This document shows positions 4,246 through 19,595 of a stretch of DNA of 20,000 nucleotides, piece after piece. Every line of letters begins with the position of its first letter. Position 1 is the first letter of the stretch. The translations under genes were made by a program, and so were the position numbers. Location: IMG/VR virus record IMGVR_UViG_3300025446_000005; one strand, 5' to 3'. The notes below the pieces were generated by a model. The model was given only the letters and a program-made list of their open reading frames with translations. It did no database searches and was not told the origin of the DNA. Origin of the DNA: an uncultured virus (IMG/VR IMGVR_UViG_3300025446_000005) (Duplodnaviria; Heunggongvirae; Uroviricota; Caudoviricetes).

Positions 4246-4983
4246 TTAGGTTCTGATTGTTAAAATACGAGTGGCGATTGTCGTGCCCGACTCTTTGAAC
4301 GTTCCTGGCGGAACGTCCTCGACTGTAAAGTCGGCATCCGGGAACAAGACGGCCAAGTCTTGGTCTGAGTGGGGCATTATGATGCTGACCAGGGTGCCCT
4401 TTGGTCGGAGCCAGCCAAGAGCGTGCCTCACATGTCGGATGTCTTGCCCTCTTGTAAATGGGGGGTTCATGACTATCCGATCAAACTTATCATCATCCGA
4501 GGCGGGCAAAGGCAAAGCGAGGAAGTCTGCGACGACGACGTCAAGGCATTTTTCAATCGCTCGGGCGGCAAATTCGGGATTGACCTCGATGCACTGGACG
4601 GATACGGCTCCTTCCTGCATGCACGCATCCGCAAGGGTACCTTCGCCGCAGGACGGCTCCAATACGGAACATCCGCACACGCTTGCCATCCTTGCCACTC
4701 TCTGCGCCAGCTTCTCGGGGGTAAAGAACGCCTGGAAAAGCTTCTTTTCGTCTATGGAAACCCCAGTCTCCAAGGCGAGGCCCAGCTTGACAAGAGGGCT
4801 GCCCTGAAAGACGTGCGTCCTCGTCTGGCGGCTCCATTTGCCGCCAGCATTCACGAGGACCTTGTTCACTTGTTCGTAAAGCTTCCGCTCCAATTGCCCC
4901 GCGGGCAACGCTAGCTGGTTTCCAGATACGGTGGAACGCCGGAGCACGTCCTCGACTTCTGGCGAAATTTTGGCGTTGGACAT
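4246..4983 (-). CDS. SAM-dependent amino-methyltransferase (probable DNA N6-adenine MTase)
   Basis: FFTP motif X, VLEPSCGEG motif I, FDRIVMNPPF motif IV, and TFKESGT. Confidence 0.88.
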   Translation of the reverse strand: MSNAKISPEVEDVLRRSTVSGNQLALPAGQLERKLYEQVNKVLVNAGGKWSRQTRTHVFQGSPLVKLGLALETGVSIDEKKLFQAFFTPEKLAQRVARMASVCGCSVLEPSCGEGTLADACMQEGAVSVQCIEVNPEFAARAIEKCLDVVVADFLALPLPASDDDKFDRIVMNPPFTRGQDIRHVRHALGWLRPKGTLVSIIMPHSDQDLAVLFPDADFTVEDVPPGTFKESGTTIATRILTIRT

Positions 4984-13177: not shown

Positions 13178-16100
13178 TTATGCTTTATCCAGCTTTTCCA
13201 GCTCCTCTTTCAGCACGGCACGGTCCCGCTCGACCTGCGACCACCCCTTCCGGTAGGTCTCGTCCATCGAGGCCCCCTTGGTGAAATGGTGGTGGGTCAG
13301 CCTGGCGGATTCGTCCCTGAACGCCTCCCCGAGCCTCGACGCCTTGGCCCAGAGGAGGTTGTCGCACCCCACGTGGTGGAATCTCTCGGAAAAGACCTCC
13401 CCGAGCCTGTCGAACAGGTCCTTGCGGATGAGAAAGTGCTCACAGGCGTTTCCCCCGTCCGGGAGCAGGGGGCCCGTGTTGACCGCCACGAGCCCGTGCT
13501 CCCTTGACGACAGCGCCGCCCGGTAGAGACACCACGGGTCGGAGAACTCCACGTCGTCGGCGGCGAAGAAGAAGGCGGCGGCCTCGGCGGCCCTGCACAT
13601 CCGGTTGACCTTCACGGGCACGGTGTCGGTGGTGCCGTCCACCAGGATCGTGACGAGGTGCTTCGGGTAGTACAGCCCATCTATCGAGTCCACGCACCGC
13701 CTCAACCCCTCCGGCCTTCCCAGGGCGGGGATGACGAAGGCGACGCGGGGCAGGTAGTCCTTCTTGCTGTAGTGGGCGGCGTCGACCCACGACTTCATGC
13801 AGTGGTGGAAGAGCCTCGTGTTGGGGGTGACGTTGATGGTGCCAGTCCGGTGGTTGTAGGGCGTGAAGTACTCCGGGGGATAGACCGCCACGCCCGGATG
13901 CCCGCTCCCGCCCTCCTTTACCAGGGGGGTGAAGACCTCCGTCGCGGCCGCGAAGGGGAAGTCCTCGTCCCCCTTGAATTTGCTCTCCATGAGCCTCATC
14001 TGCTCCCGGATCAAAGGATGGTTCGGGATCGAGCCGATGGGGGAGTTCCCGACCCATCCGTCCTCCCCCGTGCCCACGAAGAGCGAATGGCCCAGCATGT
14101 CGTCGAAGCTCCTGCCGGGAAGGACCTCCTCGTCCAGGTCGCAGTAGATTCCCCCGCGTTCCGCCAGCTCGTGGAGCCGCCAGTAGTCCGAGACGTTGAC
14201 CCATTTTTTAGCAGCCACACCGGCGTCCATGTAGGGGATTCCCCTGGGCAGGTCCTTGAGGGTGAGGACCTGGTGCTCGTACCCCCCCATCGCCCTCTGC
14301 GTGGCCAGGCACTTCCCCATGGCGGGCGGGATGCCCCCGTCCTCGGACAGCCATATGTTGAAGATCCTCCTGGGTATGGGGGCCCTGCCCAGGCTGGCGG
14401 ACCCGGGCTCCTTGACCCACGACTTCAGGAAATGGTGGAAGGTAATGCTATGGCTGGTGACGTTGGTCCTGCCGGTCTGGTGGTTGTAGGGGTAGAAGAC
14501 CTCCGGAATGCACACGAGGATGCCCTCGTCCTTGCTGGCGGCGGCCAGGATGCGGGGGGTGATGATCTCCAGGGAGGACTCGAAGTTCTTGTCGTCGTCC
14601 CCCCTGAACTTGGCTACGACCTCCTCCAGGTGCGCTTTGAGGAGCGGATGCCCCGGCTCCGCCCCCATGACGGCGGTGGACACGAAGCCGTTCTCCTCCC
14701 GCCCAGCGAACAGCGAGCGGCGGAGCAGCCCGCGGAAATCCTTGCCGGGGAGGATCTCCACGTCGGCGTCGCAGTATATGCCGCCCCGCTCGATCAGCTC
14801 GTGTATGCGGACGTAGTCGCACGCCTTGACCCATTTCTTGGCCCCGATGGCGGCGTCCAGGTAGGGGATGCCCTTCGGGCAGTCGCCCAGTCCGATGACG
14901 TGGTGCTCGTATCCCTCGACCGCCCTCTGGCTGGCGATGCACTTCCTCACGAGGTCCGGCATGCTTCCGTCCTCGGAGAGCCAGACGGTGAAGATGCGCC
15001 TGGGAATCCTGTCGGGCGGCTCGGACCTCGTCTCCTTGAACCAGATGCTCTCGCACTTTTCCGTCCCCGGGACACACTCGTCCACCGCCTCGCAGACGCC
15101 CATCCAGGTGCCGGGGAGGTAGTCGTGCCCCGACAGGACGACATCGGCCATGTCCCGCCACAGCCCGATGTCCTCCTTGACCTCCTCCTTGGTGTGCCCG
15201 GCGTCGATGAACACCATGCCGAACCTGCGCCCCTCGACGGCGCACTTGGCGGCGGCCTCGCGGCTCGTCATGCGCAGGACTTCGAGGTTCTTGAAGTGCC
15301 CGACGTTCTTCGTGAACGTGGCGAAGATGTCCTCCGCCTTCGCCATGGCGTTGGTCTGGTCCCTCGGGTCCACGGAGCCCTGGAAGGTGTCGACGCACGT
15401 CACCGTGCCCTTGCACCCGGACAGCAGGGCGTGGGTGCTCCTCCCCTTCCAGCTCCCCAGCTCCAGGACGCTGTCCATCCCCTTGGCCTTCTCGTAGAGC
15501 CAGTTGAGCTCGCCGATGCTCATCCACCCCTCGATGCCCTGGTCCTTGTACTCGTAGTCCCGGGGATAGTAGAACTGCCTTTCAGCCTGGTACTTCGGGT
15601 TGGCCGGGTCGTAGGCGAACGCCTTGTCGTAGTGCTCCTTCGACCGCGCCTTGTCGCCGAGCCACCACAGCGCCCAGTACAGCTTCTCGTGCGGCTCGTA
15701 GGTGTAGTGCGCCCCGAGGTTGCAGTAGCAGTCGTTCGGGGGTATCTCCAGGGCCGCCGAGCAGTAGCAGGCGACCTTCTGCGGGTCGTTCTTCCTCCAG
15801 TAATGGTCGGCGAGGCGGAGCAGCGGCTCCCTGCGCGTCCCGTCCGCCAGGAACGCCCTGTGCCAGGAGTCGAGTGCCTTCCCCTCCTCCCCGAGCGCCA
15901 TCCATGCGTCCCCGATGAACACCAGCGACTGGCCCCTCTCCTGCGCCCACCGGTTCATAGCGACGTGGCGGGCCAGCTCCTTGATGGCGGACTTCGGCCT
16001 TCCCCTCCACAGGAGCTCGCGCCCGAGGTAGTGGGAGTTCCGGTCGTTGCCCTGGTTGAGGTAGCAGTCGAGCGCCAGCCCGGCGAGGTAGCGGTCCCTG

Positions 16101-16720
16101 TGCGGGTCGTTGTCGGGCAACTGGAAGTGCTCCAGGAGGAGGACACTCGGGGGGAGGTAGGTGCGCTCGGCCTCGCCCACCAGGACCTCGTGGACGATTC
16201 CCTGCCAGCGCATCTTCCTGCGGTCGTACATCTTGCACTGCTTGAACTGGACGGCCGGCTGGCCGTTGGGGTAGTGCGAGAAGACGAAGTGGAACTCCAT
16301 CTGCTCGTAGCCCCGCCTGACGGCCTCCTCGATGGCGTCGATGTCGCACACGGAGAATTGCTCGTCGCAGTCGGGCATCGAGACGACGTCGTTCGTGGCC
16401 AGGAAGGCGGAATGGTTCCTGGCGGCGGCATAGTTGAACAGCCTGTCCCCCTGGCGGACTATCGGGGCCTCCCCCTCCACAACGAACCGGGCATTGATCT
16501 TGTCCGCGATGCCGGGGGGCATGTCGAACATGAACTTGTCCCCCACGCAATGGACGGAGAACCCTGCGGCCCTGCCAACCTCCACGGTCCCGTCCGTGGA
16601 TCCCGTGTCCACAAGGACCACCTCGCCCCCCCGTCCCAGGAACCCCCCCAGCGAGGCGATCAGCCGCGGGAGCGTCCTCTCCGCGTTCTTCCCTATCAGG
16701 CACACGCTGAAGTTGACCAT
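13178..16720 (-). CDS. Multidomain glycosyltransferase: GT2 + TPR + class I methyltransferase + 2x GT32(DXD)-like + GT2-like
   Basis: LVDTGSTDGT and DCDE (GT2), a helical TPR-like region, VLELGSWKGRST and MVFIDAGH (Methyltransf_24-like), twice IPRRIF..W / RGGIYCDxD / HH..KSW (GT32-like), then VAFVIPALGRPEGL and AADD. Confidence 0.92.
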   Translation of the reverse strand: MVNFSVCLIGKNAERTLPRLIASLGGFLGRGGEVVLVDTGSTDGTVEVGRAAGFSVHCVGDKFMFDMPPGIADKINARFVVEGEAPIVRQGDRLFNYAAARNHSAFLATNDVVSMPDCDEQFSVCDIDAIEEAVRRGYEQMEFHFVFSHYPNGQPAVQFKQCKMYDRRKMRWQGIVHEVLVGEAERTYLPPSVLLLEHFQLPDNDPHRDRYLAGLALDCYLNQGNDRNSHYLGRELLWRGRPKSAIKELARHVAMNRWAQERGQSLVFIGDAWMALGEEGKALDSWHRAFLADGTRREPLLRLADHYWRKNDPQKVACYCSAALEIPPNDCYCNLGAHYTYEPHEKLYWALWWLGDKARSKEHYDKAFAYDPANPKYQAERQFYYPRDYEYKDQGIEGWMSIGELNWLYEKAKGMDSVLELGSWKGRSTHALLSGCKGTVTCVDTFQGSVDPRDQTNAMAKAEDIFATFTKNVGHFKNLEVLRMTSREAAAKCAVEGRRFGMVFIDAGHTKEEVKEDIGLWRDMADVVLSGHDYLPGTWMGVCEAVDECVPGTEKCESIWFKETRSEPPDRIPRRIFTVWLSEDGSMPDLVRKCIASQRAVEGYEHHVIGLGDCPKGIPYLDAAIGAKKWVKACDYVRIHELIERGGIYCDADVEILPGKDFRGLLRRSLFAGREENGFVSTAVMGAEPGHPLLKAHLEEVVAKFRGDDDKNFESSLEIITPRILAAASKDEGILVCIPEVFYPYNHQTGRTNVTSHSITFHHFLKSWVKEPGSASLGRAPIPRRIFNIWLSEDGGIPPAMGKCLATQRAMGGYEHQVLTLKDLPRGIPYMDAGVAAKKWVNVSDYWRLHELAERGGIYCDLDEEVLPGRSFDDMLGHSLFVGTGEDGWVGNSPIGSIPNHPLIREQMRLMESKFKGDEDFPFAAATEVFTPLVKEGGSGHPGVAVYPPEYFTPYNHRTGTINVTPNTRLFHHCMKSWVDAAHYSKKDYLPRVAFVIPALGRPEGLRRCVDSIDGLYYPKHLVTILVDGTTDTVPVKVNRMCRAAEAAAFFFAADDVEFSDPWCLYRAALSSREHGLVAVNTGPLLPDGGNACEHFLIRKDLFDRLGEVFSERFHHVGCDNLLWAKASRLGEAFRDESARLTHHHFTKGASMDETYRKGWSQVERDRAVLKEELEKLDKA
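13787..15009 (-). repeat. Intragenic tandem duplication of the GT32-like domain, 630-nt period
   Basis: Homologous anchors are offset by exactly 630 nt at both ends (14361 vs 14991 'aagat'; 13784 vs 14414 'gacccacgacttca'). Confidence 0.85.
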
Positions 16721-17898: not shown

Positions 17899-18669
17899 CT
17901 ACAGGCTGCAAATACCGCCGGATGGCGATCCCGGAACGTCCGCCACGACCGGGGGGTAGGCGGACAGCCTGTTCTCGTGGGGGTAGCCGAACGGGTTCGC
18001 GACGACCCTGGTCCCGCCCATCGTGCGGTCGTATGGGAGGTGGGTGTGCCCGTACACCCACAGCCTCGGCTGCTTCTCCAGGATCAGGCTCGTGAGGTCC
18101 GAGACGAAGAACCGGTTGAGGTTCTCCCTGTCGTCCCTGTAGCGCGGATGGATGGCCAGGATGGACGGGACGTGGTGGGACAGCACGACCGTGCCCTCCC
18201 GGACGAGCCTCCACGCGGCCTCCTGGAAGGCCCCGTTCTCCGTATAGACCCAGTCGGCGAACCCCCTTATCTGAGAGAAGTCGTTGAGCTTGTGCCTGTG
18301 GTACCAGTTTTCCTTGTCGAGCGGGAACCAGAGGGTGCCCCCGAAGAAACGGACGCCCTCGACGGTCTCGTCGCCGTTCCGCAGCCAGTGGAAGTTCGGG
18401 GGCATGGCCTCGGACAGGACGGCCTCCGCCTCCTCCTTGGAGCCGCCGTAGTACTCATGGTTTCCCGCGACGAACACGGCGTGCCTGGCCTTGCTGGAAA
18501 GGAAGCCCAGCACGTCCTTGATGGCTTGGGGGCTTTGTCGGCAGGGGACGACGAGGTCCCCGGGAAGGAGGAGGAAATCGAGGTTCGGCTCGAAGGGGAT
18601 GGTCTTGAGGAACCTGACCGGGTCTGGGTAGAATTCAGAATGTAAATCTGAAAGTAGCTGTGCCTTCAC
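17899..18669 (-). CDS. Calcineurin-like metallophosphoesterase
   Basis: SDLH, PGDL, AGNHEYY, SHH and YGHTH motifs in canonical order. Confidence 0.92.
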   Translation of the reverse strand: MKAQLLSDLHSEFYPDPVRFLKTIPFEPNLDFLLLPGDLVVPCRQSPQAIKDVLGFLSSKARHAVFVAGNHEYYGGSKEEAEAVLSEAMPPNFHWLRNGDETVEGVRFFGGTLWFPLDKENWYHRHKLNDFSQIRGFADWVYTENGAFQEAAWRLVREGTVVLSHHVPSILAIHPRYRDDRENLNRFFVSDLTSLILEKQPRLWVYGHTHLPYDRTMGGTRVVANPFGYPHENRLSAYPPVVADVPGSPSGGICSL

Positions 18670-18917
18670 TTGTTCTTCTCCATGTAGTCTAATACCATTT
18701 TCACCTCATCAATGGTTGCATCTCCTTTAAGAACATTGGCACGATATGAGATGACAAACACGTTTCCTGAAATATACCCTTTACTGTTGTTGATGCGATC
18801 CAAAGAAGGAGAGTTTGGACCCGCTTTACCCCTAGATAAATATAAAGGAATCCCCAGGACTGGACAAATGTCGGGAACCACTATATCTTCAATCTTAATG
18901 GTAGATGCCTCTACCAT
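18666..18917 (-). CDS. HNH-like (beta-beta-alpha-Me) endonuclease, probably N-terminally truncated
   Basis: CPVLGIPL...SPSLDRINNSKGYISGNVFVISYRANVLK; markedly AT-rich relative to the rest of the window. Confidence 0.75.
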   Translation of the reverse strand: MVEASTIKIEDIVVPDICPVLGIPLYLSRGKAGPNSPSLDRINNSKGYISGNVFVISYRANVLKGDATIDEVKMVLDYMEKNK

Positions 18918-18938
18918 ATAATACTGAAAGTCAAAAAA

Positions 18939-19013
<75 letters not shown>

Positions 19014-19048
19014 TTCTATTTAAGGGCGCGGCAGTCAAGATTTGGGCC

Positions 19049-19236
19049 GGGGGCCAACGCCGGTCAGCGGCGTGGTGGACTACCAACCATCATCAACGGC
19101 GAAAACGAACCACCAACCACCGACAACCAACAGTTCCCTAACAGGCTCACGCCCGCAGTGTAACCCTGCCGACTATCTTTATCGTCGGAGGCCAGGTAAG
19201 GCTTTCCGACTAGCCGCGCTCTTCCGGGCGGCCCCC
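19049..19236 (-). ncRNA. Candidate structured non-coding RNA of unknown class
   Basis: Terminal GGGGGCC/GGCCCCC closing stem, internal hairpins (GCGGGC-GUGA-GCCUGU; CCGAC..GUCGG) and a ~55-nt G/U-rich repeat tract; no credible ORF. Confidence 0.55.
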
Positions 19237-19250
19237 GTCAACTTGGCTGC

Positions 19251-19562
19251 CTACTCCTTCTTGGCCGGCACGAGCTCGCCGAGGACGTCCTCGTTGGGCT
19301 CGTATCCCTTGATGGCCGCCACGGCGTTGGTCGCCTTGATGGCCATGTCCAGCTTCCGGCGCTCGCGGGCGATGTTGGATATGAGCCTGTCCAGGGCCAC
19401 GACGTCGTACGTCGGCTCGACCTTCTCCGGCGTGTCGCCCTTCAGTCCGCGATAGGTCGTCCGTGCGGCGGAGTTCTCGTTGCGCAGGCCCTGGAGCTCG
19501 GCGTGCCGCTCGGCCAGCGTCTTCGCCCACGTGAGCCCCTCGTTGATCGTCATCTTTGTCAT
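19251..19562 (-). CDS. Coiled-coil protein resembling the DIP1984/DUF6847 (septicolysin-like) family
   Basis: MTINEGL..AKTLAERHAEL...YDVVALDRLISNIARERRKLDMAIKATNA: two amphipathic helices ending in L..AI...N. GGAGG RBS before ATG 19562. The family is recognised from memory, not by search. Confidence 0.7.
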   Translation of the reverse strand: MTKMTINEGLTWAKTLAERHAELQGLRNENSAARTTYRGLKGDTPEKVEPTYDVVALDRLISNIARERRKLDMAIKATNAVAAIKGYEPNEDVLGELVPAKKE

Positions 19563-19581
19563 GTCCGTTTCCTCCCGAAGC

Positions 19582-19595
19582 ACAATACCGAAAAA
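19582..19595 (-). promoter_or_regulatory. Putative promoter (TTTTTCGGTATTGT)
   Basis: The identical 14-mer also occurs at 3428-3441, upstream of the HU-like gene; both copies are intergenic. Confidence 0.6.

Follow-up and report, generated by a model that had tools for sequence, protein, structure and literature searches.

What lies in the 237-nt gap that separates a 103-aa open reading frame (ORF) from a tRNA-Gly(CCC) gene in IMG/VR record IMGVR_UViG_3300025446_000005, an uncultured virus of the Caudoviricetes? The stretch of DNA that we analyzed (20,000 nt, here called the window) is the minus strand of positions 32175 to 52174 of this 114,183-bp record, whose CheckV completeness is 36%, and coordinates are those of the window unless a relative is named. 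The ORF (19562-19251, minus strand; stop codon TAG at 19253-19251) is followed by a noncoding RNA of ~195 nt (19237-19043, minus strand), and the original prediction, made from the sequence alone, took the two as a candidate for a new ribonucleoprotein system; the sequence features that it listed are all present. We report here that the RNA and the protein gene are strictly linked in giant phages and in Acidobacteriota, and that the RNA forms a family with strong covariation that is absent from Rfam. Its sequence features suggest that it acts together with the helical-hairpin protein encoded upstream, most likely as an undescribed ribonucleoprotein particle, a reading that we hold with about as much belief as doubt. 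Four points had no place in the prediction, namely a tRNA-like N-CCA tail, the siting in a stable-RNA island, the relatives in Acidobacteriota, and a neighboring ERCC4 nuclease gene.

A conserved structured RNA linked to a small protein gene

Folding of the window sequence by itself gives a minimum free energy with a z score of -1.28, which 16 of 200 shuffles equal (the opposite strand has a z score of -0.96); this is no better than shuffled sequence, and the case for a structured RNA therefore rests on comparison with relatives. Of the loci fetched, 13 come from viral contigs, 80 (the best of 208) from metagenome contigs, and 32 from species genomes, nearly all of these designated as Acidobacteriota or Vicinamibacterales metagenome-assembled genomes, and a similar segment of ~190 to 240 nt follows the stop codon in almost every fetched locus. 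A covariance model, R1 (205 positions, 32 base pairs), was built from bacterial relatives only, using an alignment (A3) of 41 Vicinamibacterales-type copies with helices from RNAalifold. Run over 100 sources (397 kb), R1 gives 87 matches at E ≤ 1 and matches the window at full length (19044-19238, minus strand; 26.1 bits, E = 2.4e-4 in 397 kb), as it likewise does phage relatives L010, L027, L014, L026, L028, L022, and L007; the phage's own record holds one copy (E = 6.9e-5). Across the 86 distinct rows of the resulting alignment, pairing holds in 95.5% of 2509 cells, compared with 40 to 50% when partners are slid by one to three columns, and compensatory changes, in which both sides differ, occur in 26 of the 32 pairs. 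Such changes are seen in 241 cells, against a shuffled mean of 49 and with none of 500 shuffles reaching that number. The segment thus behaves as a structured RNA and not as a spacer, as had been proposed, with covariation in three helices (P1, P2, and P3, described below) and a full-length model match. A match to a known Rfam family had been named as one way for the idea to fail; no Rfam 15 model matches 19014-19250 at E ≤ 10 or any of 12 relatives at E ≤ 1. We are close to certain that the element exists as a conserved, structured RNA and is coupled to the protein gene. The accessible parts of the literature on phage RNase P RNA and huge phages, on T4 stable RNAs, and on tRNA-like RNAs of jumbo phages contain no description of it that we could find.

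The prediction tied the RNA to the gene upstream and suggested homologous genes as the place to look for comparable structures, and there the tie holds. An R1 match lies behind 82 of the 90 homologous genes that have a recognizable end and enough downstream DNA, starting at a median of 15 nt past the stop codon. Among the misses, L079 does carry the RNA (its stop codon is misplaced) and by eye the architecture is unchanged in L072, L013, and L015; L016 and L018 are phage loci that are distant and AT-rich, and L053 and L116 have unrelated DNA 3' of the gene. A second sample, 121 genomes from the order of L102, has the RNA in six and the protein in eight, with the two adjacent in five genomes and on two contigs in one; the two protein-only cases are truncated genes, one of them ending at a contig end, and the RNA occurs in none of the protein-negative genomes of this sample. 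There is one copy of the RNA per genome in five of five genomes, as in the phage record. A degenerate core pattern run against viral contigs is a weak test in which, among the matches listed, 2 of 80 fetched loci are true by R1, both of them known protein loci. A tblastn search of 50,697 phage records with the protein gave no match, and the region around tRNA-Gly of Caulobacter phage CcrSC has neither a DUF6847 gene nor a look-alike RNA.

Anatomy of the RNA and its G/U tract

The ends of the RNA are joined by a closing helix of 13 to 16 bp, P1, whose 5' strand (19237-19224, minus strand, as are all features of the RNA) reads CGGGGGCCG, one unpaired C, then CCGG, and whose 3' strand (19063-19048) reads CCGG, CGU, then UGGCCCCCG; 19237-19229 pairs with 19056-19048, and 19227-19224 with 19063-19060. 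Both pairings that had been proposed here, GGGGGCC (19236-19230) with GGCCCCC (19055-19049) and CCGG (19227-19224) with CCGG (19063-19060), form part of it. The further extension by AGCG and CGCU is not in a conserved register and gives way to a second helix that the relatives support, P2, formed by GCGGC (19217-19213) and GCCGC (19071-19067, with CCACCAC before it and UGA after it). All 12 modeled P1 pairs vary among relatives, 11 of them with both sides changed, such that P1 is CGGGGGCUGAUUAG/CUUGUCAGUCCCCG in phage relative L010 and GGGGAAGGCCGGAGG/CCUUUGGCUUUCCCC in the bacterial type. In P2, all seven modeled pairs show compensatory change and 97.3% of cells are paired (GUGGC/GCCAC in L010). 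P1 and P2 are separated by a purine-rich internal loop, AAGAGC opposite UGA; a K-turn was considered for this loop and set aside, as the strand rules do not fit by eye. A conserved UAG and a covarying hairpin, P3 (GUCGGA...UCCGAC; 19212-19184), come next, with both sides changed in five of six P3 pairs. On direct reading, P1, P2, and P3 persist across the phage, "B," and bacterial groups, and the motif CUAGUSG...CSACGAWAAA is common to the phage and bacterial types.

P3 is followed by an A-rich single-stranded linker, GAUAAAGAUAG (19183-19173), which in relatives reads GAUAAAGAUA, GAAAAAC, or GAUAAAC, then in the window by a variable hairpin, and then by P4, a GNRA-capped tetraloop hairpin. 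The last of these was placed at 19141-19156 in the prediction and is confirmed as GGGC[GUGA]GCCU at 19154-19143. By eye, phage relatives have AACC[UUCG]GGUU, ACCC[UAUC]GGGU, or UGCC[UUCG]GGC at the P4 position, and a stem of ≥4 bp closing a 7-nt loop stands ahead of the tract in 70 of 82 bacterial-type sequences compared with ~18 in shuffles. A likeness of this bacterial P4 to an anticodon loop was dropped because alternative registers overlap and only 28 loops fit YUNNNA[AC]. In a long-loop bacterial subtype, the P3 loop and the segment after the A-rich linker are 80% paired with almost no covariation, and a pseudoknot between them is possible from the sequence. In L111, L059, and similar members of this subtype (A3 columns 40-47 with 69-77, and 74-88), GAGAC has two possible partners, the P3 loop and GUCU of the hairpin that follows, and these alternative pairings may constitute an alternative-structure switch.

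Beyond P1 there is an unpaired 3' tail, GCCCA in the window (19047-19043) and N-CCA in most relatives. CCA falls within 6 nt of P1 in 67 of 81 distinct candidate sequences, and the tails of these 67 are UCCA (42 + 7), GCCA (6), ACCA (4 + 5), and others (3); UCCA is typical of the bacterial type, and ACCA or GCCA of most phage and B types.

The 3' half of the RNA is occupied by a G/U tract (19133-19079), as the prediction had it, and the short repeats that were read there are borne out. The window tract has four in-phase GUYSGUK units (19131-19104), a second block from 19097, and, by Tandem Repeats Finder (TRF), a period-7 array of 3.4 copies at 19108-19131. Across the family, the single-stranded tract has a median length of 54 nt (≥10/12 G/U), with a composition of 42% U, 40% G, 12% C, and 7% A, and GUUG-type units recur in it at 7-nt intervals. 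Distances from UUG to UUG peak at 3, 4, 7, 10, 11, 14, 17, 18, and 21 nt, with z values of 6 to 17 against mononucleotide shuffles that are inflated because the sequences are related; the composition and the 7-nt periodicity hold in divergent groups. A GNRA hairpin interrupts the tract in 60 of 86 rows and is lacking in the window. Could the tract encode a small hydrophobic peptide of Val, Gly, Trp, Leu, Phe, and Cys codons? The window tract does contain a GTG-started frame of 28 codons and another of 16, and G/U-rich sequence has few stop codons. No reading frame through it is conserved, however: when frames are numbered from the P2 anchor, the longest one without a stop is frame 0 in 45, frame 1 in 25, and frame 2 in 14 of 84 sequences, in-frame stops occur in relatives, indels do not come in threes, and covarying helices enclose the whole tract, leaving a peptide extremely improbable. 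A periodic G/U track of this kind would look, to judge by its letters, as a multivalent binding site is expected to look.

The partner protein and a possible ribonucleoprotein particle

The constant partner of the RNA is the 103-aa protein. A word-indexed search gives 43 homologues at E ≤ 1e-3, and an exhaustive profile search gives 353 representative clusters at 50% identity, mostly of 95 to 110 aa. The protein was predicted to be DIP1984-like, which survives as a weak resemblance to the C-terminal half of the profile and fails as a family assignment: Pfam DUF6847 (PF20935) matches at E = 7e-4 over profile positions 65 to 136 of 141 with 20 bits against a cut-off of 27, and NCBIfam DIP1984 (NF038048) over positions 72 to 144 of 149 with 18.9 bits against a cut-off of 70 (22.9 bits for the relative in L003). 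A precomputed PF20935 match is present in 7 of the 43 homologues, and the nearest Atlas clusters are viral proteins of ~100 aa, of which 20 to 60% carry PF20935. An AlphaFold2 model from 41 sequences (predicted local distance difference test [pLDDT], 79.8) has two long antiparallel helices, at residues 6 to 30 and 54 to 81. Residues 1 to 85 of the model superpose on residues 71 to 151 of 3kdq_A with Z = 8.0, a root mean square deviation of 2.0 Å over 81 residues, and 20% identity, a score to be read beside the Z values of 8 to 9.6 that unrelated hairpins reach; Foldseek with the model has no match at E ≤ 1e-3, and lists 3kdq_A at E = 2.2. PADLOC, PHROGs, and a PDB sequence search gave nothing useful for the protein. 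From the model, it is a predicted helical hairpin resembling the C-terminal half of DIP1984/DUF6847 below the family thresholds, and what it has in common with that family is the weak C-terminal-half profile match, beside a superposition that unrelated hairpins equal in score; family members are ~150 aa, whereas this protein is ~100 aa and scores under both curated cut-offs. 3KDQ is the crystal structure of DIP1984 from Corynebacterium diphtheriae, of unknown function. The accessible parts of the literature on DIP1984, DUF6847, and PF20935 merely list such a gene on an Acinetobacter plasmid, with no function or RNA partner that we found. Seven K/R positions are conserved in the protein family. 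In L003 (3001-3420; on a contig shared with L010), the partner protein is extended at its C terminus by 36 aa that include two CxxC pairs and a basic tail, KKSKKNR; this extension, by its sequence, may be a zinc knuckle for nucleic-acid binding.

That an uncatalogued, folded RNA with a repeat track always follows one small helical protein gene is the reason for considering an RNA-protein particle probable. How such a particle would be made and assembled can be sketched as follows. The RNA would be excised from a polycistronic transcript by the tRNA-maturation machinery, with RNase P cutting at the 5' end of P1 and the 3' end being trimmed to the CCA tail, a route that fits its siting among tRNA, tmRNA, and RNase P RNA genes without a promoter or terminator of its own (see below). 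Dimers of the hairpin protein would probably rebuild a four-helix unit like that of DIP1984, and several copies of the protein could bind the heptad track side by side, the folded scaffold holding the track open.

Several observations weigh against this picture. A natural deletion variant, L107 (2812-2954), keeps the scaffold and yet has lost the greater part of the G/U tract. Not every relative has the CCA tail, the sequence there being GCCCA in the window and GAACCC in one subgroup, with none in L015. The protein is not basic overall (median isoelectric point, 6.6), and antiparallel helical hairpins are a common fold, with the unrelated ones scoring as noted above. The alignment used for covariation was fitted to R1 and is made up mostly of related Vicinamibacterales-type rows. 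Finally, a metatranscriptome search gave word shares of only 4 to 5%, and the cover in four metatranscriptome runs, which derives from other organisms, is confined to the conserved cores of tRNA-Gly and RNase P RNA; within 19029-19589, a single run shows a trace (19260-19358, in the protein gene), and the others show nothing. These runs speak neither for nor against expression of the locus.

Proteins that read repeated units in RNA are familiar from TRAP with the trp leader and from HutP with the hut antiterminator (UAG with 4-nt spacers), both of them ring proteins reading RNA tracks. These systems share with the RNA described here the use of short, G/U-containing units at fixed spacing in single-stranded RNA, with a period here of 7 nt. 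They are 5'-leader attenuators with terminators and antiterminators, however, whereas this RNA lies 3' of its gene in a closed scaffold where our scan found no terminator, and Pfam matches its helical-hairpin partner to neither TrpBP nor HutP. The Ro60 (Rsr) and Y RNA particles of bacteria and jumbo phages offer another comparison, with a long closing stem formed by the 5' and 3' ends, a tRNA-like flavor, and an adjoining gene for the partner protein. Rfam includes Y-RNA models, and the segment has no Rfam match; Y RNAs, unlike this one, have no heptad G/U track, and none of the nine window ORFs scanned against Pfam has a TROVE domain. The part of one report accessible to us describes Ro/TROVE proteins with a tRNA-like partner and such particles in jumbo phages also (PMC7824862).

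Genomic setting and alternative roles

The window belongs to a phage, with phage-like genes including those for a UvsX-like recombinase, a Holliday-junction resolvase, a DNA methyltransferase, a phrog_2488 helicase, a tail-fiber-like protein, and a metallophosphoesterase; in addition, in a phage protein of 1180 aa (13178-16720, minus strand), two glycosyltransferase domains occur together with a methyltransferase domain and a TPR repeat. The whole record has a single stable-RNA island, consisting of 11 tRNAs and tmRNA followed by RNase P RNA, the ORF, the RNA, and tRNA-Gly. The RNase P RNA, which belongs to the surroundings and not to the module, is of bacterial class A (19898-19592, minus strand; the Rfam RF00010 model scores 203.2 bits over positions 1 to 367, where the gathering score is 100), and the protein gene starts 29 nt past its end; tRNA-Gly(CCC) (19013-18939, minus strand; called by ARAGORN, 65.3 bits with the Rfam tRNA model) is the last gene of the island. 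L010, L014, L022, L023, L027, and L028 have the same stable-RNA neighborhood, and phage-type loci sit amid tRNA and tmRNA genes, with an RNase P RNA gene in addition in the window and in L027. Because the phage copies sit in a translation-RNA island, a role of the phage particle in tRNA or translation biology is pointed to.

This setting invites comparison with substrates of RNase P. Like tmRNA and 4.5S RNA, the RNA has a G-rich 5' end and a terminal helix with an unpaired N-CCA (only approximate for the GCCCA of the window), and it is sited among tRNA and tmRNA genes; other substrates of this kind, with an acceptor-like helix that ends in CCA, include the stable RNAs rnaC and rnaD of T4. ARAGORN calls only tRNA-Gly here, however, and the Rfam models for tRNA, tmRNA, and signal recognition particle RNA do not match the RNA, which unlike tmRNA has no T-arm and no conserved tag reading frame and which occurs in phages that carry a normal tmRNA as well. 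In one alternative, the RNA would serve as a decoy or sponge, stable and in the style of a tRNA, occupying a host RNA-binding protein, nuclease, or tRNA-end-modifying enzyme through its G/U track or its acceptor-like helix, with the protein only a coexpressed helper or chaperone. Such a decoy is favored by the acceptor-like helix and its unpaired N-CCA tail, which 67 of 81 candidates have, and by the placement of the module, in five phage lineages, amid genes for tRNA, tmRNA, and RNase P RNA, and on a reading of the sequence the UGGU-type units of the track are complementary to ACCA-type 3' ends. But tail letter and track motifs do not covary (GCCA-tailed RNAs are without UGGC), the tRNA-finding tools and the absence of a T-arm count against it, and the strict linkage to one protein family is left unexplained; we regard a decoy as unlikely.

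Several features of the islands stand apart from these considerations. A second phage-borne class A RNase P RNA is present in L027 (344-657; 188 bits, compared with 203 bits for the window copy), and in both phages the RNA matches the full length of the model, has a shortened middle region, and is adjoined by a tmRNA gene and a tRNA array; the accessible parts of the literature contain no report of a phage-borne RNase P RNA that we found. Directly after tRNA-Gly is an ORF of 83 aa that is HNH/endonuclease VII-like (18666-18917, minus strand; phrog_3322, E = 2.4e-26), within a patch (18501-19000) of 48% GC in a genome of 63% GC, and it looks like an inserted homing endonuclease. Just 5' of the tmRNA gene of L020 (1224-1317; C1:31336-31429 in its own record, outside the window), ARAGORN finds an unusually long tRNA-Ile(UAU) of 94 nt, and L028 likewise has an unusually long tRNA-Ile(UAU) ahead of its tmRNA gene. 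The tRNA array of the low-GC phage of L013 includes a tRNA with anticodon CUA (4561-4633, labeled Pyl by ARAGORN) that may be an amber suppressor; a look-alike RNA and a distant copy of the protein are present in this phage too.

The position of the RNA within its transcription unit bears on whether it acts in trans at all. The prediction gave the protein gene its own promoter motif, which we could not substantiate, as a consensus scan of the minus strand found no sigma-70-like promoter for the gene, and no terminator. This would suit a cis-acting part of the mRNA, either a 3' untranslated or intercistronic element that stabilizes or punctuates the transcript or a site for autoregulation of the operon by the protein, as would the start of the RNA 3 to 21 nt past the stop codon in most loci and, often in bacterial loci, the start of the next gene 2 to 6 nt after the CCA. 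The downstream gene varies, however, being tRNA-Gly, an ERCC4 nuclease gene, or unrelated ORFs; a fold with a tail and a periodic 54-nt track is far more elaborate than known stabilizer hairpins; and no target site common to the groups emerged when duplexes with the mRNA of the protein itself were sought. The last result also disposes of an antisense role against that mRNA, which had been considered as the I-N codons (AUCAAC) complement GUUGAU. A cis-acting element is accordingly a rather unlikely account of the segment.

A different kind of neighbor is found in the bacterial loci. In 28 of 54 distinct Vicinamibacterales-type loci, a gene for a nuclease with ERCC4 and HhH domains starts less than 200 nt after the RNA, and in no phage or B-type locus does it do so; other neighbors vary, with integrase, HepT, ParE-like, and AlpA genes close by in some loci. 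A separate observation is L122 (2713-2794), a natural deletion variant that has lost most of the RNA along with the end of the protein gene and has retained the ERCC4 gene. Together with the patchy, single-copy distribution (6 to 8 of 121 genomes), the nuclease and these other neighbors would fit a protein and RNA that are the regulatory or antidote half of a toxin-antitoxin or defense cassette, with the ERCC4/HhH nuclease as the effector in Acidobacteriota and with giant phages carrying a nuclease-less anti-defense decoy. Against this, 26 of the 54 loci are without the nuclease, PADLOC matches neither the protein nor the nuclease, and the RNA is not a tandem array like the antitoxins of type III systems, having only its internal 7-nt array of 3.4 copies. 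Type III systems of the ToxIN kind do resemble the locus in having a small protein gene beside a repeat-bearing RNA, on phages and in patchy loci. There, however, the RNA lies upstream and consists of tandem units of ~36 nt (30 to 40 nt), whereas here it lies downstream as one fold with 7-nt internal repeats, and the protein has no match to an endoribonuclease family in Pfam or PADLOC. We consider such a cassette doubtful, and the least likely of the accounts just weighed apart from the peptide.

The favored ribonucleoprotein particle could also be combined with elements of these alternatives. In such a joint reading, an RNA matured like a tRNA would have its heptad track coated by a polymer of the hairpin protein; in Acidobacteriota, the particle would be the control half of an ERCC4/HhH cassette, and giant phages would keep the nuclease-less pair to disarm or imitate that cassette. 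We put this forward as a speculation that is improbable in all its parts together, to the same degree as the cis-acting element.

Two families emerge from this locus, an RNA that Rfam lacks and a protein whose gene always adjoins it, both of them common to giant phages and a major soil phylum, and the candidate RNA partner is the first concrete functional lead for the DUF6847/DIP1984 superfamily. In the translation-RNA islands of huge phages, a gene of a new type thereby joins the tRNAs, the tmRNA, and, in this case, a phage-borne RNase P RNA, and the periodic GUUG track of the RNA provides a simple, testable model for multivalent RNA recognition by a helical protein. If the ERCC4 link holds, the module may be an RNA-containing conflict system; if tRNA-like maturation and a coated heptad track prove true, they would constitute a new class of phage and bacterial ribonucleoprotein.

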